The notes under the pieces: model-generated
Seen by the model: the letters and a program-made list of their open reading frames with translations, nothing else
What the model was told of the DNA's origin: nothing
Database searches by the model: none
Position numbers and translations under genes: made by a program
Shown here: positions 13,575 to 23,471 of the stretch, in pieces
Position numbering within the stretch: position 1 is the stretch's first letter
How the letters are laid out: each line of letters opens with the position of its first letter
Source of the DNA: Clostridia bacterium
GTDB lineage: Bacteria; Bacillota; Clostridia; Oscillospirales; CAG-382
Direction: 5' to 3'
Length of the DNA: 64,000 nucleotides
Assembly (NCBI GenBank): GCA_017399965.1
Contig: JAFQAP010000018.1
Coordinates: 11,546-75,545, forward strand

Positions 13575-15248
13575 ATGAGCTTTAAAAGAATTTGCGTGCT
13601 GTTACTTGCTTTTTTGATGTGCGCAGGCATACTTGCTTCCTGCACCGAAAATGAAAACGAGAGCAACACAAACGAATCCGAACAAAACGAAAGTGTTCCC
13701 GAAGAGGAGAGTAAAGAGCCTATGCCCGAATACTGGGGATTTAACGATTATAATACGGTTGAAATTAAGGGCGCACCCGAAGAGATAAAATCCTATGAAA
13801 CTACCGTAACAAAGGTAAGCGATAAAAAATACGCCGTAAGCTGTATGACCGAAGCAGGCAAGCTTACCATCACTCTTGAGGAAAGACCCTGGGGCTGCTT
13901 TAACCTTTGGGCTTGGAACCTTGTGGATAAAGACGGAAAGACGCATACCTTTGCAGTAGGCGCTACCGATTTCGAATACGTACATATTCCTACCACACCC
14001 AAGGGAACAAACGTATGGTCCGGCGGAAACCACGGCAACGAAGCCTTTTTGTCCATTGATTTTTACAATGCTGAAACCGGCGAAAAGCTTGAGCTTGAAA
14101 CGGGCAAGGCTGTAACCGTAAATTCTCTCCACGTTATCGAAAAGAGCAAGCTGCTTTGGTTCCCCGATGATAACGGCGACAGTATAGGCGATTACAACAA
14201 CAAGTCTATGTCCTATACCGAGGACGACGTATACTGCGAAATGACAAGAAAATACACCTTCACAGGTCCTCAGATAAAGCTTAACTGCGATTACAAATAC
14301 GTTAAAGACGTAAACCACAGCCGTTCTTACACCTGTATGCTTCCCATTAACAAAAAATACGGCTTGTGGTGCGAAATGTACGATAACAACGGCAAGCTTT
14401 TAAAGACTATTGAAACCCTTAAGGTAGGCGCGGCGGATTATTCAGGTCCCTCCAATTCCGGCAACGCCGCATCCAGAGCGGTTATTTACGGTTATGCAGA
14501 CCCCAGATATCAATTTGACGTGAGAGTTACCACCTACGAGGATTCTTTGGATAAATGTCAAGGCGATTACAAAACTGCGTTCTGGGATATGAACACCACA
14601 GATAACAAGCTGTATTTTACCAAATTCTCTAACTCCGTAAAAAAGACGCTGCCTGCGGGAACGGAATTCCACACCGAATGCTTCTGGCTTTTCAATTACG
14701 TTGAAGATGCAGTTGCACCCGATATAAGCGAACCTGAGGTAAGCACTCCCGACGAAATCGATCCTATCGGAAATTTGGTTTCCGTAGGTAAAGAATACAC
14801 CCTTTCGGGTCTTTTGGGAACAGGATACGGCAACTACACCGCAAACCTTACGGACGGAAAACACACCAATACTCTTACATACGACAACAACTGGTTTTCC
14901 TTCTTTAACAGCTCCGCCCTTACACCCGAAGAGCTTAACACAGAAAACGGAATTGCTTGGCTTATTATAGACCTTGAAAAAGAAACCGATATTTCCTTTG
15001 TGAGAGCTCACATTTGCAACGGCGGAACCGCGGGAATAAACGCACCTAAAAAGGCTGTGGTTTCCGTTTCGGACGACGGAACCAACTTTACAGACGTAGG
15101 CGAACTGCCCATTTCCACAGACGCAAGCGCCATCTACTGGAGCCATCTGGAAACGGAAGGAATTAACGCAAGATACATTAAATTTACATTTACCCCCAAC
15201 GGACTGTTCGTTTTCCTTAATGAAGTCGAGGTTTACGAAGCACAGTAA
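13575..15248 (+). CDS. secreted lipoprotein with a C-terminal discoidin/F5-8-type-C-like carbohydrate-binding module
   Basis: Lipobox 'GILASC'. C-terminal 'ANLTDGK ... ARYIKFTFTPNGLFVFLNEVEVYEA'. Confidence 0.65.
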   Translation: MSFKRICVLLLAFLMCAGILASCTENENESNTNESEQNESVPEEESKEPMPEYWGFNDYNTVEIKGAPEEIKSYETTVTKVSDKKYAVSCMTEAGKLTITLEERPWGCFNLWAWNLVDKDGKTHTFAVGATDFEYVHIPTTPKGTNVWSGGNHGNEAFLSIDFYNAETGEKLELETGKAVTVNSLHVIEKSKLLWFPDDNGDSIGDYNNKSMSYTEDDVYCEMTRKYTFTGPQIKLNCDYKYVKDVNHSRSYTCMLPINKKYGLWCEMYDNNGKLLKTIETLKVGAADYSGPSNSGNAASRAVIYGYADPRYQFDVRVTTYEDSLDKCQGDYKTAFWDMNTTDNKLYFTKFSNSVKKTLPAGTEFHTECFWLFNYVEDAVAPDISEPEVSTPDEIDPIGNLVSVGKEYTLSGLLGTGYGNYTANLTDGKHTNTLTYDNNWFSFFNSSALTPEELNTENGIAWLIIDLEKETDISFVRAHICNGGTAGINAPKKAVVSVSDDGTNFTDVGELPISTDASAIYWSHLETEGINARYIKFTFTPNGLFVFLNEVEVYEAQ

Positions 15249-15263
15249 ACATACATAAACATC

Positions 15264-15310
15264 TTTAAACGCCATCGGAAACACGATGGCGTTTAAAACT
15301 GTTTTTATTT
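15264..15310 (+). terminator. rho-independent terminator
   Basis: 14-bp stem TTTAAACGCCATCG (15264-15277) / CGATGGCGTTTAAA (15284-15297) followed by a T-rich tail. Confidence 0.8.
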
Positions 15311-15382
15311 AGAAAAAGAAATAACATTCCAAAAAACGGGTATACTTTTTCTATATCAAAGGGAAAGGAAATACGGTTTAAA

Positions 15383-15817
15383 ATGATAGAACAAGATACC
15401 ATAAAGCTGCTTCGTGAATGTGATGCGGGAGTAAAAATGGGTGTAAGCTCCATCGAAGGGGTTTTGGATTACGTTAAGGACGATACTTTGTGGAAATATT
15501 TATCCGATTGCAAGGAAGAGCACGACGAGCTTGACGAGGAGCTGCAACAGCTTTTGGATAAATACGATGACGAGGGTAAAAACCCTTCCCCTATTGCAAA
15601 GGGAATGTCTATGATGAAGACTGAGATAAAATTGGGCATAAAGGGAAATGACAAAACTATTGCAGACCTTATAACCGATGGGTGCAATATGGGGGTTAAA
15701 TCCCTTAACAGATATCTTAACCAATACAAAGCGGCGGACGAGGTTTCCAAGGATATTACAAAACGCCTTATAAACCTTGAAGAAAAGCTGGCTGTGGATA
15801 TACGGTCGTATCTTTAA
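15383..15817 (+). CDS. hypothetical all-helical protein (144 aa)
   Basis: Clean ORF with heptad-like acidic helices. Function not recognised. Confidence 0.55.
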   Translation: MIEQDTIKLLRECDAGVKMGVSSIEGVLDYVKDDTLWKYLSDCKEEHDELDEELQQLLDKYDDEGKNPSPIAKGMSMMKTEIKLGIKGNDKTIADLITDGCNMGVKSLNRYLNQYKAADEVSKDITKRLINLEEKLAVDIRSYL

Positions 15818-15939
15818 AAAGGGATGGGGGTTGTCGCAAGCGGTCGGGTGAAAAAAGTGCCCGACCGCTTAAAGACAAGGAGAAACTTATGATATGGACG
15901 TAAACTTTTTTGAAATTTTTATATTGAAAGGTTGTTTAT

Positions 15940-16623
15940 TTATAACAACTGTCCTTCCGCTTCACCTGCATCGGGGTATACGTAACCGGTAACGAGCTCG
16001 GGCATATTGGGCTTTATATCGGTATGGGATGCACAGAAATCGAGTATTGCCCGGTATGCAGTCGTATTTTTTCGCCGTGTGAAAAAGCCGGAAACATGAG
16101 CGGTCTTAAAGGCGCAATGCCACCACATACTCACACCGCGCAGACGTTTTCTGCCGTGCTTTTTGTTTTCAAGCTTTTTATCGGATACATAAAATATATA
16201 TTCGTGGCCGCGATCGGGGTAATACATATCACTAAATCTATAATCCAAGGTCTTGCGGAAATAGGAAAAGCCGTAGTCCTTAAGATCCGCCCAGAGAATG
16301 TGCTTTTCCCCGAAGGGAGAAAGACGGTGTATTCCCTGCTCGTCAAAAACGTATGTAAACAACACTTCACGGATGTTGTATACAAGGTAAAGGGCCATCA
16401 TGGCAAACACACAAATTAACAAAAACATAACGATGCCCAAACCCATATTGACCAAAAGCTCAAACCGTTGGTCTGCGGGAGTCAGAACACCCGAACCGAT
16501 ACAATATGCCCACAGTATTACCATGCCCAAGGAAAAGAGCGTCATCATGCCGTAAATTATTACAGAGGGTATACCTACTTTTCTTCCGCTGATTGTAATT
16601 TTGCTGTCTGTTACTTCTAACAT
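15940..16623 (-). CDS. membrane protein, paralog of 16635-17333
   Basis: N-terminal TM hairpin. Shared blocks 'SPFGEKHILWADLKDYGFSY' and 'YIFYVSDKK'. Confidence 0.6.
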   Translation of the reverse strand: MLEVTDSKITISGRKVGIPSVIIYGMMTLFSLGMVILWAYCIGSGVLTPADQRFELLVNMGLGIVMFLLICVFAMMALYLVYNIREVLFTYVFDEQGIHRLSPFGEKHILWADLKDYGFSYFRKTLDYRFSDMYYPDRGHEYIFYVSDKKLENKKHGRKRLRGVSMWWHCAFKTAHVSGFFTRRKNTTAYRAILDFCASHTDIKPNMPELVTGYVYPDAGEAEGQLL

Positions 16624-16634
16624 ATATGCCTCCG

Positions 16635-17333
16635 CTATAAATTTTTGGGGCGGAATTTTTCTTTTAATTTGTCCGAGGGGCTTTCAAGCACAGGATCGAG
16701 AAGTCCCGTGGCGTTGGATGCGATAAAGGGCTGAACGTCCGTATGCTCTGCGCAAAAGGCGAGCGTCTGGCGCACGTGTTCACCTTGCTCGCGGGCTTCA
16801 AAATAGCCCGTATGCTTTTGATATCCCAGATTGAATGAAAGTTTGAAAAACACACCGGAAAGATCTTTTTTGCTGTAATTCTTTTGGGGACACACTTTGT
16901 CCGAAACGTAAAAGGAATAGGATTTGCCTATATCAATGAAAAAATGGCTTGAACGGCGGGTATACTCGAAGGAAATTCCGTAATCCTTAACGTCTTCCCA
17001 AGCAATAAACCTTGTGCCGAAGGGAGAAACGCGGCTTACTCCAAGCTGATCGAAAACGTATACGCACAGTGCGATTTTGGCACAGCAGAAGGCGCTGTAG
17101 GCTGACAAAAAGCAAGCAACAGTAAAAATTAATGCGGTGACAATAAAGAACGCGTATGCAAGCTTAACAGCGATAGGCGATGCGTGCTCCGAGGGTTCAT
17201 AGGTGAAGATGGTACGTATTAAATGATATGCGCCCCAAGCAGAAAGCAATGAGAATACGGAGAATATAAGCGTTACCGCTACTCCGGGTGCACGTTCATC
17301 TATTTTTATTTGTTTATCGGTTATATCGTACAT
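16635..17333 (-). CDS. membrane protein, paralog of 15940-16623
   Basis: Shared blocks 'SPFGTRFIAWEDVKDYGISF' and 'YSFYVSDKV'. An 11-nt gap to the next gene. Confidence 0.6.
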   Translation of the reverse strand: MYDITDKQIKIDERAPGVAVTLIFSVFSLLSAWGAYHLIRTIFTYEPSEHASPIAVKLAYAFFIVTALIFTVACFLSAYSAFCCAKIALCVYVFDQLGVSRVSPFGTRFIAWEDVKDYGISFEYTRRSSHFFIDIGKSYSFYVSDKVCPQKNYSKKDLSGVFFKLSFNLGYQKHTGYFEAREQGEHVRQTLAFCAEHTDVQPFIASNATGLLDPVLESPSDKLKEKFRPKNL

Positions 17334-17355
17334 TTTAAAACCGCCTGAAAGTTAA

Positions 17356-17721
17356 TTAGATAAAAGGATAAATGTAGGTGAAAAGCTGAGAAACCTCTTC
17401 GGGTGCATAAACTAAAGGGATGATAAAATAATATGCAAATGCAAGGGTATACATAATTCCCGAAAGAACGAGATTGATTATTGCGAGTATCTTGGCAGCG
17501 GTTATCATTTTGGACTTGACGCCTTCGTTTTCGCGGTGGAAATTGCTTACCTTCTGAAGTGCGTAAATAGCGATAACAACACCGAGCCAACCGAAAAAGA
17601 AATAGGAAACGATCGCGGTTATAAGGGTCTGGTTGGGTAATGCGGTTTTTACCTTATATTCCTTCACCGGCTCCGCAGGGCGAACATCATCTTCGTTATA
17701 TTGATATTTATAATTAGCCAC
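17356..17721 (-). CDS. CD225/dispanin (IFITM-like) two-TM small membrane protein, copy A (GTG start)
   Basis: 'GWLGVVIAIYALQKV...EG...TAAKILAIINLVLSGI' aligns without gaps to the IFITM 'LGxxxAxY..K...G...AKxLxIxxLxLxGI' pattern. GTG start with an AAGGA RBS. Paralog of copy B. Confidence 0.6.
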   Translation of the reverse strand: MANYKYQYNEDDVRPAEPVKEYKVKTALPNQTLITAIVSYFFFGWLGVVIAIYALQKVSNFHRENEGVKSKMITAAKILAIINLVLSGIMYTLAFAYYFIIPLVYAPEEVSQLFTYIYPFI

Positions 17722-17819
17722 GGTCTTTTTTCCTTTCGTAATTGTCCGCCGAGGGACCGCCGCGTTTGGACGGCACCTTCGGGAACGGAGTATATACAGT
17801 AGTTTGGCGTCACTGTCAA
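17722..17819 (-). promoter_or_regulatory. promoter (TTGACA-17-TATATA) plus conserved leader block of copy A
   Basis: -35 at 17814-17819 and -10 at 17791-17796 (minus strand). Block 17745-17814 is 67/70 identical to 18287-18356. Confidence 0.6.
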
Positions 17820-17877
17820 GGGGAAGTACGGATTTCATCATACCCCGGATAAAGTTTGCGGTTGCGGTCTTGCCGCC
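17815..17877 (-). pseudogene. 63-bp relic of the flotillin 3' coding region (duplication scar)
   Basis: About 90% identical to 18496-18564, which lies inside the flotillin gene (codons for '...ANFISGMMKSVPPLD'). Confidence 0.8.
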
Positions 17878-17887
17878 TGAAAGTTAA

Positions 17888-18262
17888 TCAGATAAAAGGA
17901 TAAATATATGTATAAAGCAGTGAAGCCGATTCGGGTGCCTGAGTAGCTAAGATAATGAGCGCGACGATGAAATACACAGCCGAAGAAGCCACCCCTACGC
18001 CCGTCATAACAAGACATATAATAGCAAAAACTCTTCCGACCTTCACCTTGGTACAGGTTTCGCCTTCATGCTCGGTGAGATAGATCTTCTCTTTTTGAAG
18101 GGTCCACAAAGCAAGAGCAAAGCCTATCAAGCCGTAGAAAATAAGAGAAAGTATACCCATTATCAACACGTTATTGGGATGCACGGTGTAATATTTGTAC
18201 TCCTCCACCTCTTTAGGCGGGGGCGCGGGTTCTTCGTTGTATGAGTATTTATAGTTTGCCAT
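17888..18262 (-). CDS. CD225/dispanin (IFITM-like) two-TM small membrane protein, copy B
   Basis: 'MANYKYSYNEE...GLIGFALALWTLQKE...YIYPFI'. ATG follows AAGGAG. About 35-40% identical to copy A. Confidence 0.6.
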   Translation of the reverse strand: MANYKYSYNEEPAPPPKEVEEYKYYTVHPNNVLIMGILSLIFYGLIGFALALWTLQKEKIYLTEHEGETCTKVKVGRVFAIICLVMTGVGVASSAVYFIVALIILATQAPESASLLYTYIYPFI

Positions 18263-18356
18263 ATTAAAATCTCCTTTTTTATGGTTTCCGCCGAGGGACC
18301 GCCGCGTTTGGACGGCCCCTGCGGGAACGGAGTATATACAGTGGTTTGGCGTCACT
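18263..18356 (-). promoter_or_regulatory. conserved leader/promoter block of copy B
   Basis: 18287-18356 is nearly identical to 17745-17814. Contains TATATA/TATACT, but no good -35. Confidence 0.5.
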
Positions 18357-18402
18357 ATATATCTGTGTCATACGCGTTTACGCACGCGCGGGCGTTTTGT
18401 GA

Positions 18403-19797
18403 TTACTGTTCGGTGGCTGTAGTTTCTATGCCCGCTTCATCAAGCTTTTTGCCGAGAATGGGGGGAAGCTGCATACCTGCCATTGCGAACACCTCGTCAA
18501 GAGGAGGTACGGATTTCATCATACCGGAGATAAAGTTTGCGGTTGCGGTCTTGCCGTCGCCGCCCTGGCCGCCGTCCCAAACGGTAACCTTATCGATCTT
18601 AATACCCTTAACAGCATCAACCTGAACACGCATAAGGTCTTCCAGCTTATCTGCAATAAGGAGCTTGAGTGCGGCTTCGGGGTCGCCGCCTGCGGATTTA
18701 ACGATCTCTGCAAAACCTGCAGCCTGCTTTTTAAGTATTTCTTCAACACCGCGTGCTTCTGCTTCCATCTTTGCGTAGATAGCGTCTGCTTCACCCTTTG
18801 CTTTTCTGCGGAGTCTTTCTGCTTCTGCTTCTGCTTCCAGTTCGATCTCTTTCTTCTTTGCTTCTGCACGTACGATTATGTCTGCTTCCAAAGTAGCCTG
18901 CTCTTTTGCACGGCGTGCTTCTTCTGCTGCCTGCTGTGCCGCATAGGATTCTTCCAGAGCCTTTGCTTCCTGAATCTTTTCTGCGGTAGTAGCGATCTTC
19001 ATTGCCTCTGCCTGCTTTTCTTTAAGAGCGGCTTCGGACATAGCGATCTTCATCTTTGCTTCGTTTTCACCCTGAATAGCAATAGAATCTGCTTCGGAAA
19101 CCTTGATACGCTGTTCCATCTTTGCGTTTGCTTCACCGATAGAACCTTCTCTATCCTGCTCTGCCACGCTCTTCTTTGCATCGTTGATAGCCTTTGCAGC
19201 GGCTTCTTTACCAAGCGCTGCGATATATCCGGATTCATCGCTGATATCGGTTACGTTAACGTTTATAAGGCGGAGACCGATCTTTTTAAGTTCGGTTTCT
19301 ACGTTGGAAGATACAGCGGCAAGGAATTTATCACGGTCGGTGTTGATCTCCTCGATATCCATTGTAGCGATAACAAGACGGAGCTGACCGAATATGATAT
19401 CCTTTGAAAGTTCCTGAATTTCGGAAAGCTGGAGTCCCAGCAGACGTTCTGCGGCGTTTTGCATTACACCGGTTTCGGTAGAAATACCAACGGTAAATCT
19501 GGAAGGAACGTCGATACGGATATTCTGTCTGGAAAGTGCGTTCTTAAGGTCTACCTGAATGGAAATGGGTGTAAGGTCCAGATAGGAATAAGACTGGATC
19601 ACGGGCCATACGAACTGAGCGCCGCCGTGAATACACTTGGAGCTGCGGGTGGTGCCGTCTTTGTTTTTACCGATACGACCGTAGATGACCATGATCTTAT
19701 CGGAAGGGCATCTCTTGTATCTGGAAAAGAGCCAGAGCACAAAGGACATTAAGATGAGCACTACTGCACAAATCAAAACGATGATAATGGGGTTCAT
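18403..19797 (-). CDS. flotillin-family SPFH protein (YqiK-like)
   Basis: N-terminal TM segment, SPFH domain, and a long Ala/Glu coiled coil 'EAEAEAERLRRKAKGEADAIYAKMEAEARG'. Confidence 0.9.
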   Translation of the reverse strand: MNPIIIVLICAVVLILMSFVLWLFSRYKRCPSDKIMVIYGRIGKNKDGTTRSSKCIHGGAQFVWPVIQSYSYLDLTPISIQVDLKNALSRQNIRIDVPSRFTVGISTETGVMQNAAERLLGLQLSEIQELSKDIIFGQLRLVIATMDIEEINTDRDKFLAAVSSNVETELKKIGLRLINVNVTDISDESGYIAALGKEAAAKAINDAKKSVAEQDREGSIGEANAKMEQRIKVSEADSIAIQGENEAKMKIAMSEAALKEKQAEAMKIATTAEKIQEAKALEESYAAQQAAEEARRAKEQATLEADIIVRAEAKKKEIELEAEAEAERLRRKAKGEADAIYAKMEAEARGVEEILKKQAAGFAEIVKSAGGDPEAALKLLIADKLEDLMRVQVDAVKGIKIDKVTVWDGGQGGDGKTATANFISGMMKSVPPLDEVFAMAGMQLPPILGKKLDEAGIETTATEQ

Positions 19798-19836
19798 AAT
19801 TTTCCTCCGAAAAATTTATTTTTTATTTTTTTAAAT

Positions 19837-20469
19837 TTACTTTTTTCTTACAACAAGAGTAGTTTCGCCGCTTACACGGACGACTACCACTTCACTGCCT
19901 GTGGGAATGGGGTCGGGTTCATCGGTAACCGCGTCCCGTTCTACGTAGGAGCCCTGAAGCAGTATGTGTACCTTACCCTCGCCCATTCTTGCGGGAGGGA
20001 TGGTAAGATGTACTTTGCCTGCGGTGCCGACGGCGTTTCGGATATCTATTGTTCCGTCGCTTTTCAGGTTCATTATCGCTTTGAAAATAAAAGCGAGCAA
20101 AACCATCATTGCAAAGCCGCAAACAGAGGATATGGGAATGTTTATCCACAATGCCACGTTCATAGACTCCAGCAAAGCGCCGACCCATCCGAATATTACC
20201 AGAAAGGCGATAACGCCTCTTACGGTGAATATGCGTAGTCCGTCAAACCCGTTGGGGTCCAAGTCCTCGTCAAATCCGCCGTCTTCGCTTCCGTCAACGT
20301 CCACATCATCGGATACGTCTGTGTCCGCTCCGTCTGCATCCGCATCCTCGCCCATACCGATAAACATCAAAATCGTCTGAACAAGAAGGACCAGAGTAGA
20401 AGGAACTGCAATACAATAGAATATTTGCGCCACCAAGCTAAGAGAATTCCACCATTCAATAATAGCCAT
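19837..20469 (-). CDS. NfeD-family membrane protein (YqiJ-like)
   Basis: TM segments, an Asp-rich loop 'DADADGADTDVSDDVDVDGSEDGG', and a C-terminal OB-like 'GKVHILLQGSYVERDAV...VVVVRVSGETTLVVRK'. Confidence 0.8.
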   Translation of the reverse strand: MAIIEWWNSLSLVAQIFYCIAVPSTLVLLVQTILMFIGMGEDADADGADTDVSDDVDVDGSEDGGFDEDLDPNGFDGLRIFTVRGVIAFLVIFGWVGALLESMNVALWINIPISSVCGFAMMVLLAFIFKAIMNLKSDGTIDIRNAVGTAGKVHLTIPPARMGEGKVHILLQGSYVERDAVTDEPDPIPTGSEVVVVRVSGETTLVVRKK

Positions 20470-20506
20470 AACGCTTTTCCTTTCCTTAATTTATTTTAGT
20501 AATAAT

Positions 20507-21061
20507 TTATTTCAAAGTAGAGAGCAGCTCAATGGATTTGTCCCGCATGCGGGAAGCACCGTGAGCATAAAACATTACTACCAAAAGCTTACACAGCTTT
20601 TTCTTTTCGCCGGGCGTGCGCTCCGTAAATCCTTCGGAAGCGGCTTCCGCTGCTTTAAAGACTGTGCCTTCATCGATAATGTCCAGCCGTGTATCCGATA
20701 ACATATCCACGTATCTGTGATACAGCTCGTTATCGCTGATAAGATCGTCATCCGGATTATCCAATTCACCGCCGATGATCTGTATAAGCCCGCAGATACG
20801 CTCGATCTGCAAAGAATCTCGGAGCATATTTATAATAAGTATACGGGCAAACTGCTGGCGTGAATATAATCTTTTTACAGGTGAGGTGAGAAAACCTCTT
20901 TTCACCCAATTTTGTATAACGTAGGGCTCCAAGCCTGTCATAACGGAGACCTGGGAAAGAGTTATTCCCCCTGCCGCAAAAACACCGTCAAACAAAGCTT
21001 TGGAGCTCCCTTTGGTAAGGGCGCTTACCTCTATGGTAGTTCCCGGGAATGTTCCTGCCAT
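20507..21061 (-). CDS. DUF1836-like protein with a MerR-like HTH
   Basis: 'TLSQVSVMTGLEPYVIQNWVKRGFLTSPVKRLYSRQQFARILIINMLRD'. GGAGG RBS. Confidence 0.6.
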   Translation of the reverse strand: MAGTFPGTTIEVSALTKGSSKALFDGVFAAGGITLSQVSVMTGLEPYVIQNWVKRGFLTSPVKRLYSRQQFARILIINMLRDSLQIERICGLIQIIGGELDNPDDDLISDNELYHRYVDMLSDTRLDIIDEGTVFKAAEAASEGFTERTPGEKKKLCKLLVVMFYAHGASRMRDKSIELLSTLK

Positions 21062-21099
21062 ATTTTTACCTCCTGTGCGGTTTCTCTTGGTACGATGTG

Positions 21100-21128
21100 A
21101 TTATATCATATGGTCACGTGATTGTCAA
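21100..21128 (-). promoter_or_regulatory. consensus sigma-A promoter of the DUF1836-NfeD-flotillin operon
   Basis: Minus strand: TTGACA (21128-21123), 17 nt, TATAAT (21105-21100). The spacer contains the palindrome TCACGTGA. Confidence 0.75.
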
Positions 21129-21199
21129 TAAAAATCATACGACTATTTTACGTTTCTGCATATTGCACATATTTGTGTGTGCGTTTTTGTGTGTAACAT

Positions 21200-21232
21200 A
21201 CAAAAAAGGAGCCTGTTTGCACAGACTCCTTT
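21200..21232 (-). terminator. rho-independent terminator of the LOG-family gene
   Basis: Minus strand: AGGAGTCTG...CAGGCTCCT hairpin followed by TTTTTTGT. Confidence 0.7.
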
Positions 21233-21249
21233 AATTGAAGTATTATTAA

Positions 21250-21831
21250 TCAGCCTTCTTTTAGTTCATTTACGGTAAAATCGTTGCTTACGGGTGCTTC
21301 GATATACTCAAGCAGCTTTTGCATATCGTCGGTCACGGTATAAAGTGTTCTGCAGTTTGCGTGAACAAAGTTTTTTTCTATAGCCGTTTCCATTAAGGTG
21401 TTAAGCTCCGAGTAATAATTCTTCACGTTGTAGATGGCTATAGGCTTATTGTGTCGGCAAAGCTGTTTTAACGTGAGTATTTCAAAAAATTCCTCAAAGG
21501 TGCCGATCCCGCCGGGAACTACTATAAACGCATCGGAATTATCTTCCATTATCTGCTTGCGCTGACGCATTGTTTCGGGCTCGATAAGCTTATCGCAATG
21601 GGGATATATAACCTCAACGTTCTCTTCCCCAAAAAATTCGGGAATAACGCCTAAAATATATCCACCTGCGCTCTTAACGCCTCTTGCCGCCGCGCCCATA
21701 AGACCGTTACCGCCGCCTCCGAAAACGAGGGAATGTCCTCGCAAAGCCATTTCTTTGCCCAACGCCTCAACCTTTTTCATATATTCGGGGTCTATTGTAG
21801 GCGATGCCGCGCCGAAAACACATATTCTCAT
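21250..21831 (-). CDS. LOG family / TIGR00730 Rossmann-fold nucleotide-binding protein
   Basis: 'GGGGNGLMGA' and 'PGGIGTFEEFFE' motifs. Confidence 0.88.
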   Translation of the reverse strand: MRICVFGAASPTIDPEYMKKVEALGKEMALRGHSLVFGGGGNGLMGAAARGVKSAGGYILGVIPEFFGEENVEVIYPHCDKLIEPETMRQRKQIMEDNSDAFIVVPGGIGTFEEFFEILTLKQLCRHNKPIAIYNVKNYYSELNTLMETAIEKNFVHANCRTLYTVTDDMQKLLEYIEAPVSNDFTVNELKEG

Positions 21832-21939
21832 ATTTTATTCTCCTTTCATACCGCTGTATTTTTCCTTAACATATTATACCATAAATATTAAGGTTATGAT
21901 ACGTTATTATTAAAATACGGTAAAATTTTCGCAATGTTA

Positions 21940-22395
21940 TCAATTTAATAATTTCAAATATTCGCCGGTTTCAAGATAGCGAGTGAGCAGTTCTTCAAAA
22001 TGCTGCATAGTACATACGCCTATTTCTGCGTAATCGTATACGTCGGAAAGATAATACATATCCTCCCATATGGGGTTCTCAAAGCCGCGGTTATACACGG
22101 AAACGGTATACATTATCTCCGCGCATCGGGCGTTAGTCAATCTTCCCGCAAAATATTCATCACGGAGAAACAGCCGCATACGGCGGCAGGCTTCATACTC
22201 ATCCCGATCGCCGCGACTTATGTATTCGAGATAAGATATTAAAGCATTTATATCGTTTCCTTTTCCTATAAGCCCCAGAGTCTCTTCGCTTATGGGATCT
22301 TCGGTTTCAAGAAGGTCATTTAACCAAGTGTCGAATTGCTCTGTATAGCCGCATTTGAGAAGCAGCATCTGATAATACGCATTGGCACGTGTCAT
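21940..22395 (-). CDS. hypothetical protein (151 aa)
   Basis: Clean ORF with a GGAGG RBS. No recognised motif. Confidence 0.55.
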   Translation of the reverse strand: MTRANAYYQMLLLKCGYTEQFDTWLNDLLETEDPISEETLGLIGKGNDINALISYLEYISRGDRDEYEACRRMRLFLRDEYFAGRLTNARCAEIMYTVSVYNRGFENPIWEDMYYLSDVYDYAEIGVCTMQHFEELLTRYLETGEYLKLLN

Positions 22396-22430
22396 AAAAA
22401 AGCCTCCTTTTTGAAATAATAAAAATTTTA

Positions 22431-23471
22431 CTATATATCCAGCAAATACGCCAGCAACAGATTTAAAGTATTGTTAATTCCGTCCATGTGGGTGCGCTCC
22501 ATTCCGTGGCTGCAATACACCGCCATACCGAAAGCGGCGGCGCGTAAATTATTGCCCGCACGCATTGCGGCGTTGGCATCCGTGCCGTAGTTCATAAATA
22601 CGTCCACGGCGTAATCACATTCCGCTTTTTGAGCAAGTGAGATAAGACGGGATGTCAGCTCGTAATCGTACGGTGCGGTGGCATCCTTTGCGCAAATGCT
22701 TACGGAATATTCGTTACCCTCCAGCCCGGGACCGATAAGACCGATATCAAGAGCTGCGTATTCGGAAACGTTTTCGGGAACGTAAGTGCCGCCCAATCCG
22801 ATCTCCTCACCGTAAGGGAAGGCAAAAACGGTATTGTATTTGGGCTTTAAGCCCTTTTCTTTAAGATATTTGAGCGCCGTGAAGCAGCAGGCAACCGCCG
22901 CTTTGTCATCCAAAAATCTGCCCTTTATGTAGCCGTTTTCCGTGTATTGAAAGCGGGGATCAACGGAAACGAAATCTCCGTTTCTTATGCCCAGAGCATA
23001 TACGTCCGCTTTGGAGGACACACGCTCGTCAAGAAGTAAAACCATCGTGTCTTCGTTTCGTTCAAGGGTTCGCGCATCCTTAAAAACGTGCACGGAATGG
23101 GATTGACACGCCAAAAGCCCCGTGTATTCCCTGCCGTCGCGGGTATGAACGGTAACCGTTTCCCCCTCCAGATTGGCATAGTTTACGCCGCCCAGATTAC
23201 GCATACGGATCTTTCCGTCCCCGTCAACGGTGCGCACCACAAGACCGATCGTATCCGCATGGGCGCCCACAAGCACGGTCTTTGAGGTATCCTCGCCCTC
23301 TATGGAAATATATGCGGTGCTTTTATTATCATAAATAACGGTCTCTCCGAGAGAACGGGCGTATTCCTCCAGCAGAGGATTTAACTTTACATAATATCCC
23401 GTAGGGCTGGGAACCGCCAAAAGATCTTCAAGGCAGGAAAGAAAATATTGTGTATCGGTTTTAAATTTCAT
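22431..23471 (-). CDS. M42 family metallopeptidase (aminopeptidase/CelM-like)
   Basis: 'LVGAHADTIGLVV', 'RFLDDKAAVA', 'YGEEIGLGG'. ATG at 23471 follows GAGGTG. Confidence 0.8.
   Translation of the reverse strand: MKFKTDTQYFLSCLEDLLAVPSPTGYYVKLNPLLEEYARSLGETVIYDNKSTAYISIEGEDTSKTVLVGAHADTIGLVVRTVDGDGKIRMRNLGGVNYANLEGETVTVHTRDGREYTGLLACQSHSVHVFKDARTLERNEDTMVLLLDERVSSKADVYALGIRNGDFVSVDPRFQYTENGYIKGRFLDDKAAVACCFTALKYLKEKGLKPKYNTVFAFPYGEEIGLGGTYVPENVSEYAALDIGLIGPGLEGNEYSVSICAKDATAPYDYELTSRLISLAQKAECDYAVDVFMNYGTDANAAMRAGNNLRAAAFGMAVYCSHGMERTHMDGINNTLNLLLAYLLDI

Follow-up and report, generated by a model that had tools for sequence, protein, structure and literature searches.

In the described SPFH2-NfeD2 operons, such as yuaF-floT-yuaI of Bacillus subtilis and yqiJ-yqiK of Escherichia coli, the gene for a weakly NfeD-like membrane protein directly precedes that of a flotillin, in which a membrane anchor at the N-terminus is combined with an SPFH domain and an EA-rich coiled coil; additional genes specific to the lineage may come after it, yuaI of B. 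subtilis being an example (PMC2636767). The partners of flotillins are known to be weakly NfeD-like: YuaF and YqiJ were termed "minimally conserved NfeD homologs", and YuaF is 21% identical to PH0471 (PMC2636767). Precedent for a membrane-protein gene that consistently adjoins a bacterial flotillin gene and is co-transcribed with it comes from the flotillin-associated rhodopsin cluster (PMC10308929). Here, a flotillin operon with a tail of small membrane-protein genes was analyzed in a 64,000-nucleotide (nt) stretch of DNA (the window) from the Clostridia bacterium assembly GCA_017399965.1 (Oscillospirales; CAG-382), contig JAFQAP010000018.1, positions 11,546 to 75,545 of the forward strand. 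Coordinates are those of the window unless they are preceded by the handle of another locus (L001 and the like).

The locus resembles the SPFH2-NfeD2 operons in its weakly NfeD-like upstream gene, in the architecture of its flotillin and in the lineage-specific genes that follow. It differs from them in having a DUF1836/MerR-like helix-turn-helix (HTH) gene as its conserved first gene, a consensus sigma-A promoter with an embedded dyad rather than a sigma-W promoter, and small membrane proteins rather than an acetyltransferase downstream. The rhodopsin cluster is conserved over three distant taxa and has transcript evidence, whereas the association found here belongs to one clade and is hypervariable. 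We hold, with moderate confidence, that the locus has two layers, namely a conserved envelope module and a clade-specific, recombining island of accessory membrane-protein genes that is read through from the flotillin promoter. Genes 1-3 would form the conserved module on its consensus sigma-A promoter, and genes 4-7 would have been appended downstream of flotillin in a single genus-level clade of ruminant-gut Oscillospirales. The features of the locus are as follows, in the direction of transcription.

21205..21232, minus strand: intrinsic terminator of the upstream LOG-family gene (12-bp stem, then a T-run)
21100..21128, minus strand: operon promoter, TTGACA, 17-nt spacer, TGaTATAAT with extended -10 (12/12 match and conservation)
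21110..21125, strand-neutral: dyad overlapping the -35 box and spacer, probable operator (conserved in relatives)
20507..21061, minus strand: gene 1, DUF1836/MerR-like HTH protein, putative regulator, 184 amino acids (aa) (Pfam DUF1836 and MerR_1)
19837..20469, minus strand: gene 2, divergent partner of the NfeD2/YqiJ-YuaF type, 210 aa (sub-cutoff NfeD and YqiJ_N matches, position)
18403..19797, minus strand: gene 3, flotillin of the SPFH2 type, 464 aa (Band_7, flotillin-1/2 alignment)
18263..18363, minus strand: leader 1, two hairpins and a ribosome-binding site (covariance model)
17888..18262, minus strand: gene 4, small protein with two transmembrane (TM) segments, 124 aa, ATG start (ortholog starts)
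17722..17821, minus strand: leader 2, shortened first hairpin (H1) and second hairpin (H2) (covariance model)
17356..17721, minus strand: gene 5, second small two-TM paralog, 121 aa, GTG start (ortholog starts)
17341..17373, minus strand: conserved 33-nt tail, with a second copy at 17873-17905 after gene 4 (sequence repeat)
16635..17333, minus strand: gene 6, 232 aa, two TM segments and a putative PH-like beta domain (sub-cutoff bPH_6 match, AlphaFold2 model)
15940..16623, minus strand: gene 7, gene 6 paralog, 227 aa (identity and shared motifs)

All seven open reading frames lie co-directionally on the minus strand (15940-21061), as a sequence-only reading of this DNA had reported, and the 22-nt and 11-nt gaps which it quoted are correct. 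Its description of the genes as tightly spaced holds for those two gaps but not for genes 3 and 4 or genes 4 and 5, which are separated by 140 nt and 166 nt, respectively. The boundaries previously given for genes 4 and 5 were those of the longest open reading frames (155 and 161 aa). Because a MANYKY start with a ribosome-binding site just 5' of it is present in all orthologs, the real genes are 17888-18262 and 17356-17721, and the two long gaps follow from these corrected starts. Upstream of the operon, the LOG-family terminator (21205-21232) isolates the operon promoter from the preceding gene.

Gene 1 scored above the cutoffs of both Pfam DUF1836 (PF08876; 48.2 bits, cutoff 27, E 1.3e-12) and MerR_1 (29.8 bits, cutoff 21.6, E 6.7e-7) and is a DUF1836/MerR-like HTH protein, as had been proposed. 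DUF1836 is classed in the Pfam HTH clan, and its members were proposed to regulate adjacent membrane-protein genes (PMC3146951). Gene 3 matched Band_7 (93 bits, E 2.9e-26), and nearly the whole protein (residues 55-458) aligned to eukaryotic flotillin-1/2 (9l3g, 9bq2; E 7e-28); the matches to NCBIfam FloT (E 1e-45) and to the Flot domain (E 9.5e-4) fell under the equivalog cutoff and the domain cutoff, respectively. By these alignments gene 3 is a true flotillin, in agreement with the initial call.

The gene 2 product has several TM helices and an Asp-rich loop and ends in a beta region. It had been called a YqiJ-type NfeD with an Asp-rich loop; the loop is present, but the matches to NfeD (PF01957; 19.3 bits against a cutoff of 29.1) and YqiJ_N (14.7 bits) are weak and sub-cutoff. 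Twelve of 35 gene-2 orthologs matched NfeD at E<=0.01, all under the cutoff, and the ortholog profile matched YuaF (2k14) at E 0.3. For the C-terminal domain, which in NfeD is an OB-fold barrel of five strands, a single-sequence AlphaFold2 model contained five strands at low confidence (predicted local distance difference test, pLDDT, only 51). Searches of genes 1 and 2 against PDB sequences returned nothing useful. A sub-cutoff NfeD score is to be expected because flotillin partners are only weakly NfeD-like, and gene 2 was accepted as the NfeD2-type partner mainly on account of its position.

Conservation of the core was assessed by open reading frame calling and phmmer in 80 flotillin loci, one genome per species, from Oscillospirales and other Clostridia (67-99% flotillin identity). 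A gene-2 ortholog lies directly upstream of flotillin in 77 of these loci, the position of an NfeD-type partner, and a gene-1 ortholog heads the trio in 56, with 6 more loci cut by a contig end. By gene order and homology, the regulator-NfeD-flotillin trio is an ordinary, widely conserved operon. The region 3' of flotillin is heterogeneous across the 80 species, which have unrelated and often convergent genes there.

Within that heterogeneous region, five species carry co-directional members of an unannotated multi-TM family of about 165-275 aa, with four TM segments in the members of about 165-190 aa. These genes directly follow flotillin in L016 (2314-2808), L024 (2918-3484) and L056 (8472-9299) and lie one or more genes further on in L026 (9126-9800) and L028 (10059-10544). 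The L016 protein, the sole member scanned, had no Pfam match.

The site at 21128-21100 is the only one in the region that matches the sigma-70 consensus at 12 of 12 positions and carries the TG extension. Promoter-like sites as a class occur in the region at chance level (16 found and 15.1 expected), and a single match alone proves little. Before the gene-1 ortholog, 39 of 53 testable species have boxes resembling TTGACA and TATAAT that lie exactly 17 nt apart, and because this position is conserved across species the perfect consensus promoter noted earlier is judged to be real.

A dyad, ACAaTCAcgTGAccaT, overlaps the -35 box and spacer, with its core TCACGTGA at 21114-21121. The motif nTCAnnTGA stands immediately after the -35 box in 40 of the 53 species, and both half-sites of the wider dyad ACAnTCAnnTGAnTGT change together across species; the variant ACAGTCACGTGACTGT was found in L052, and ACATTCATCTGAATGT in L064 and L078. 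The dyad is probably an operator, most simply that of the gene-1 HTH protein, which would bind it and thereby autoregulate the operon. Classical MerR promoters have a 19-20 nt spacer between the -35 and -10 boxes, with a dyad operator inside it. The dyad here also lies in the spacer, but the spacer was 17 nt in all 39 promoters scored, which argues against the classical MerR DNA-distortion mechanism.

The genes after flotillin have a different distribution from the trio. Hidden Markov models (HMMs) of the small-protein family and of the gene-6/7 family showed both families to be restricted to loci with flotillin identities of 94% or more to that of the window; these loci all have the same flanking genes and therefore represent one genus-level lineage. 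In 68 more distant species with the same flotillin operon (flotillin <=90% identical), neither family was found within 7 kb, and in L013, with a flotillin 90% identical, the next gene is convergent. Inside the clade, small proteins follow flotillin in every contig that reaches upstream. The nearest outgroup homologs (P0024 and P0028, with a common loop motif ENNGETCxMVKVG) are encoded in tandem arrays of 2-3 paralogs of 113-126 aa by an alpha/beta-hydrolase gene (L132:6614-7762, L133:6621-7756 and L136:1792-2511). No SPFH/flotillin gene was found near these arrays, and the L133 array is in the same metagenome-assembled genome (MAG) as L012.

Comparison with L001, from the same species, shows how fast the island changes. 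The flanks and genes 1-3 are 98-100% identical in nucleotide sequence (synonymous divergence, dS, 0.02-0.18), and the island is 72-83% identical, with sharp breakpoints at both edges. The dS was 1.39 for gene 4 (64% aa identity), 0.29 for gene 6 and 0.59 for gene 7; L001 lacks gene 5 and has two additional genes. Identity is back to 94% in the convergent 144-aa gene. Such old alleles on a young background point to recombinational replacement. The ratio of nonsynonymous to synonymous divergence (dN/dS) was 0.16-0.41 in island genes (0.16-0.26 in gene 4) versus 0.02-0.21 in the core, which indicates that the island genes code for protein and are under constraint, if weaker constraint than the core.

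About ten gene contents were found among the genomes and contigs examined, differing in most of them and recurring in some. One or two small genes come first, followed by mixes of other genes or by none; these others include 230-aa, 217-219-aa zinc-ribbon, 168-aa and 158-aa proteins and a 273-aa lipoprotein. The extra island genes of relatives (219-aa zinc-ribbon, 168-aa, 158-aa, 273-aa lipoprotein and others) had no Pfam match. None of the seven proteins of the operon matched PADLOC at E<=0.1, and a search of all proteins against PHROGs gave no match.

Beside the island, the convergent 144-aa gene at its 3' edge (15383-15817, plus strand) has a sub-threshold match to DUF2383 (ferritin-like) and is 96-97% identical in aa sequence in relatives. 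Missing here but frequent in the islands of relatives is a two-TM protein of 209-219 aa whose C-terminus carries a CxxC...CxxC zinc ribbon (L001:9101-9760, L012:10308-10961, L041:8526-9155 and L122:8403-9056). Its family stands co-directionally after flotillin in three species (L011, L012 and L041), including the more distant L041, where flotillin is 86% identical.

Genes 4 and 5 are 43% identical as proteins and share an invariant N-terminus (MANYKYxYNE) and C-terminus (YIYPFI). Their alignment has two hydrophobic segments with a short conserved charged loop between them, a generic arrangement common to many unrelated hairpin proteins. In L012 and L122 the gene-5 type comes first among the small genes, and gene 5 is present or absent among close strains. 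A word-indexed homology search returned only 11 relatives of the small protein, none with a Pfam domain, and an exhaustive profile search of 1.84 billion representatives returned 72 hits at E<=1e-3, 3 of them at E<=1e-10. When 67 distant relatives were scanned, CCC_membrane (NF040945) was found in 62 (best E 3e-24), DUF4190 in 33 and MpPF26 in 28, and many had N-terminal zinc ribbons. Genes 4 and 5 themselves scored 22.4 and 22.1 bits against NF040945, below its cutoff of 65, and had no direct match to DUF4190; homology to the DUF4190/CCC-motif proteins is transitive, through the members which the family profile retrieves. On these profile links, genes 4 and 5 are a very small, divergent branch of the DUF4190/CCC-motif two-TM hairpin proteins. 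They share with DUF4190 (PF13828), NF040945 and MpPF26 the order of first TM segment, short charged loop with a conserved G, and second TM segment, and differ in their own N- and C-termini and in having no N-terminal zinc ribbon like that of many relatives.

The sequence-only reading had taken genes 4 and 5 for CD225/dispanin-like proteins and had suggested that they are IFITM-like cargo of the flotillin, perhaps in phage defence. As a description, two small paralogous two-TM proteins after flotillin stood up; the family assignment did not. Against CD225 (PF04505), gene 5 scored 11.5 bits (E 0.35, gathering score 27.1) and gene 4 had no match, and among 13 small-protein family members scanned singly there was one match, at E 0.21. 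The 25 families listed for those 67 relatives did not include CD225. Comparison by hhalign with an IFITM profile, which was mammalian only, gave a probability of 0.6% for the small-protein family profile and 8.6% for the distant-relative profile; with so narrow a profile an extremely remote homology is conceivable, though nothing speaks for it. With Pfam, the families of the relatives and hhalign all negative, a CD225/IFITM identity was rejected. Genes 4 and 5 share with CD225/IFITM proteins their small size and a pair of hydrophobic segments joined by a conserved loop; they lack significant sequence or profile similarity and the conserved cysteines that precede the loop in IFITMs. Co-occurrence of the small families with flotillin in other genomes, which had also been named as a check, extends to one narrow clade (0 of the 68 other species), and the proposed role in phage defence found no support in PADLOC or PHROGs.

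Genes 6 and 7 are 31-32% identical and share the motifs YVFDxxGxxRxSPFG and FCAxHTD, in keeping with their description as two paralogous membrane proteins of roughly 230 aa. Only nine orthologs were found in a collection of 5.8 billion proteins, none of them annotated. Gene 6 had a sub-cutoff match to bPH_6 (17.9 bits, cutoff 22, E 3e-3), and 9 of 10 gene-6 orthologs likewise matched bPH_6 below threshold (best E 2e-3); gene 7 had no family match in Pfam or NCBIfam. An AlphaFold2 model of gene 6 built on a 10-sequence alignment (pLDDT 68.8, predicted template modelling score 0.60) comprised a short N-terminal beta hairpin, two long TM helices at 14-44 and 53-88, five strands within 91-144 and a helix at 177-197. 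Foldseek found nothing significant for this model in the PDB (top matches E 0.22-2), although most of the 30 best matches were PH/PTB folds (Rtt106, SSRP1/Pob3/Spt16, ICAP1 and Numb). With moderate-to-low confidence, genes 6 and 7 are predicted to be two-TM proteins with a PH-like domain.

Such an architecture would recall the bPH proteins of the YdbS/YdbT type, in which a pair of TM helices leads into a small beta-sandwich with a helical cap. Those proteins frequently occur as neighbouring paralogous genes and are tied to resistance to, or export of, membrane-active peptides. Genes 6 and 7 differ in that their similarity is sub-threshold, their domain is longer with poorly modelled insertions, and no bacteriocin genes are nearby.

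About 70 nt before genes 4 and 5 are nearly identical despite the 43% identity of the proteins. In leader 1, H1 spans 18334-18362 with the loop ACGCCAAAC (GCCAAAC), H2 spans 18291-18324 with the loop CAAACG, and the ribosome-binding site follows; an invariant linker, TGTATATACTCCG, separates H1 from H2. In leader 2, H1 is shortened (17796-17816) and H2 spans 17749-17782. A covariance model built from seven versions of the leader recovered it ahead of each small gene in the clade, giving 21 hits of which 16 are distinct, with both copies present where there are two genes. In the alignment 92% of the cells were paired and 8 of 22 pairs showed compensatory changes, and the covariation score was above those of 500 of 500 shuffles and of all slid controls. 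G.U or U.G pairs at H1 columns 6-28, 7-27 and 8-26 occurred in 8, 5 and 7 of the 16 sequences, respectively. Such an abundance of G.U pairs, which pair on the sense strand only, fits an RNA structure rather than a DNA palindrome.

An Rfam 15 scan of 14000-23000 (E<=1) gave no match to the leader. The one candidate it raised, rli52 at 15259-15355 (E 1; 27 bits, gathering score 70), is almost surely a chance match and lies at a strong bidirectional terminator hairpin (15263-15298). No further copy of the leader turned up in the rest of the window or in the loci of the other 68 species. A metagenome-wide scan with the pattern GCCAAACN{3,8}TGTATRTACTCC gave 29 matches, a number of the same order as the roughly estimated chance yield; none passed the covariance model (one was marginal, at E 0.43), so the element is not extended beyond the clade. 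A riboswitch or attenuator was set aside because no T-run follows H2 and the ribosome-binding site lies outside the hairpins; the leader is no obvious terminator and no obvious riboswitch of the kind that sequesters the ribosome-binding site.

H1 and H2 types occur in different combinations among the leaders, which suggests crossovers at the linker. The conserved 33-nt 3' tail comprises the end of the small gene with the stop codon, the 22-nt spacer and the AGGCGG ribosome-binding site of gene 6, and its presence in two copies is explained if leader, small gene and tail were duplicated or exchanged as one unit. The identical leaders were not put down to recent tandem duplication alone, because the coding sequences are only 43% identical and the paralog of the gene-5 type is old. 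Cassette exchange or gene conversion at the conserved flanks fits better.

The seven genes, putatively a single operon, are interrupted by the two structured gaps of 140 and 166 nt. No terminator-like site was found in a search of the minus strand between genes 3 and 4, and a promoter-like site stands before gene 5. Leader 2 can also be read as TTGACA (17814-17819), 17 nt and TATATA (17791-17796); in second-copy leaders a TTGACA-like box 17 nt before TATATA replaces the 5' arm of H1, with the same -35-like start in L126 and L130. On account of this box, gene 5 may have a promoter of its own besides read-through. First-copy leaders carry no -35-like sequence. With no terminator after flotillin and no -35 box in the first leader, read-through from the flotillin promoter is the most likely source of island transcripts.

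A GC-rich hairpin, CGCGTGCGTAAACGCG, lies at 18364-18402 (minus strand) directly after the flotillin stop codon. Equivalents with different stems are present in L001 and L012, and all of them lack a T-run. The hairpin may stabilise the 3' end of the upstream transcript, or it may belong to the leader.

The island always begins with one or two modules, each a two-hairpin leader and a small two-TM gene, followed by variable small membrane proteins, and would be transcribed from the flotillin promoter. The leader may serve separate post-transcriptional handling through processing, 5' stabilisation or a factor that binds the twin CAAAC loops. Islands appear to be swapped between strains by recombination, with old alleles, gene presence or absence and purifying selection, and their proteins would act in the flotillin-organised membrane. 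Our preferred guess, from the population pattern and by analogy, is that the island possibly provides strain-specific protection against membrane-targeting agents. In B. subtilis, both flotillin operons and the ydbST operon, which encodes two-TM proteins with PH domains, belong to the sigma-W antimicrobial and envelope-stress regulon, and yqeZ-floA-yqfB confers sublancin resistance (PMC3498285). YdbS/T-like PH proteins (DdE/DdF of enterocin DD14) are needed for export of a leaderless bacteriocin (PMC8657885).

Several points weigh against this two-layer account. Co-transcription is inferred from the missing terminator and the missing -35 box. All island contexts come from one lineage, so that the position next to flotillin may reflect history and not function; among outgroups, the nearest homologs of the small proteins do not lie beside flotillin, and no PADLOC or PHROGs match speaks for a defence or immunity role. 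The PH-like call on genes 6 and 7 depends on sub-threshold matches and a shallow 10-sequence alignment. The 17-nt spacer of the dyad promoter is unlike the 19-20 nt of classical MerR promoters. The covariation statistics of the leader are inflated, since the 16 sequences are closely related and their alignment was fitted to the model.

In an alternative reading, the island has no functional relation to flotillin, and a recombination-tolerant slot between flotillin and the convergent 144-aa gene collects strain-variable genes for small membrane proteins, for instance orphan immunity-type genes, with their own expression signals. Such a slot would account for an island restricted to one clade, for the sharp breakpoints at both edges and for a gene content that differs in most genomes and contigs, and it is in line with the second array of related small proteins elsewhere in the L012 MAG, the unrelated and often convergent genes after flotillin in other species, and the TTGACA-17-TATATA of the second-copy leader. 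It sits less well with the missing terminator after flotillin, the missing conserved -35 box before the first small gene and an island orientation that is always that of flotillin, and the small multi-TM genes (four-TM; zinc-ribbon two-TM) found co-directionally after flotillin elsewhere hint at a recurrent theme. We consider this alternative rather unlikely, though it deserves to be kept in view. Somewhat more doubtful still is the idea that the leader acts as DNA, with H1 a palindromic operator over the -10-like TATATA of an internal promoter and H2 simply a transcribed 5' stem-loop. The 3' arm of H1 does contain TGTATATA, TTGACA does stand exactly 17 nt upstream in second copies, and the invariant linker could be a promoter or initiation sequence; yet the many G.U and U.G pairs of H1 would be mispaired in a DNA palindrome, nothing like a -35 box occurs in first-copy leaders, the TATATA box is TATGTA in L007, and the same CAAAC motif in both loops suggests a common RNA ligand.

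A bolder extension of the two-layer account would make the locus a strain-variable "conflict" locus functionally coupled to the flotillin scaffold, with cassettes of small two-TM and PH-like membrane proteins that protect single strains from bacteriocins, phages or other membrane-targeting agents, swapped by recombination at the invariant linker, and each under an undescribed twin-hairpin RNA whose CAAAC loops bind a common factor; we regard this as improbable. The least credible reading is that genes 4 and 5 are bacterial IFITM/CD225-type proteins, dedicated flotillin cargo that remodels microdomains in envelope stress or phage defence. Like CD225 proteins, the small proteins form hairpins of two hydrophobic segments around a charged loop that is conserved; in the insignificant hhalign matches a P-N-N before the first TM segment stands opposite the IFITM P-D-H and the boundary between loop and second TM segment opposite that of IFITMs; and the small genes follow flotillin in all clade contigs reaching upstream. 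Set against this are the Pfam and hhalign results given above, with CD225 absent from the families of the relatives, as well as the missing families in 68 other flotillin-operon species, outgroup homologs that are unlinked to flotillin, and the lack of any PADLOC match. On the checks which the sequence-only reading had itself named, HMM searches and co-occurrence in other genomes, its CD225 part is already largely refuted, and we give it very little credence.

Outside the operon, a 151-aa gene (21940-22395, minus strand) flanked by the peptidase M42 gene and the LOG-family gene has the appearance of an insertion specific to this strain. It had no Pfam match and is missing from L001, L004, L007 and L008, which are otherwise 98-100% identical and show an alignment gap at about 21750-22400.

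The regulator-NfeD-flotillin operon followed by small membrane-protein paralogs, as first read from the sequence, is retained, while the IFITM/CD225 part fails on the checks just named; that parallel would have been striking. What is left is an operon of a known type, extended by an accessory tail that is lineage-specific and hypervariable, together with a small, new and narrowly distributed RNA element, and is of modest interest. The small covarying RNA element before each small gene has no Rfam family, and its general importance is limited because it is known from one clade. The trio, with its DUF1836-type regulator and dyad promoter across many Clostridia, offers a testable handle on flotillin control outside the sigma-W model of Bacillus. 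If the coupling is functional, the hypervariable island on flotillin in this one lineage would indicate natural flotillin clients.

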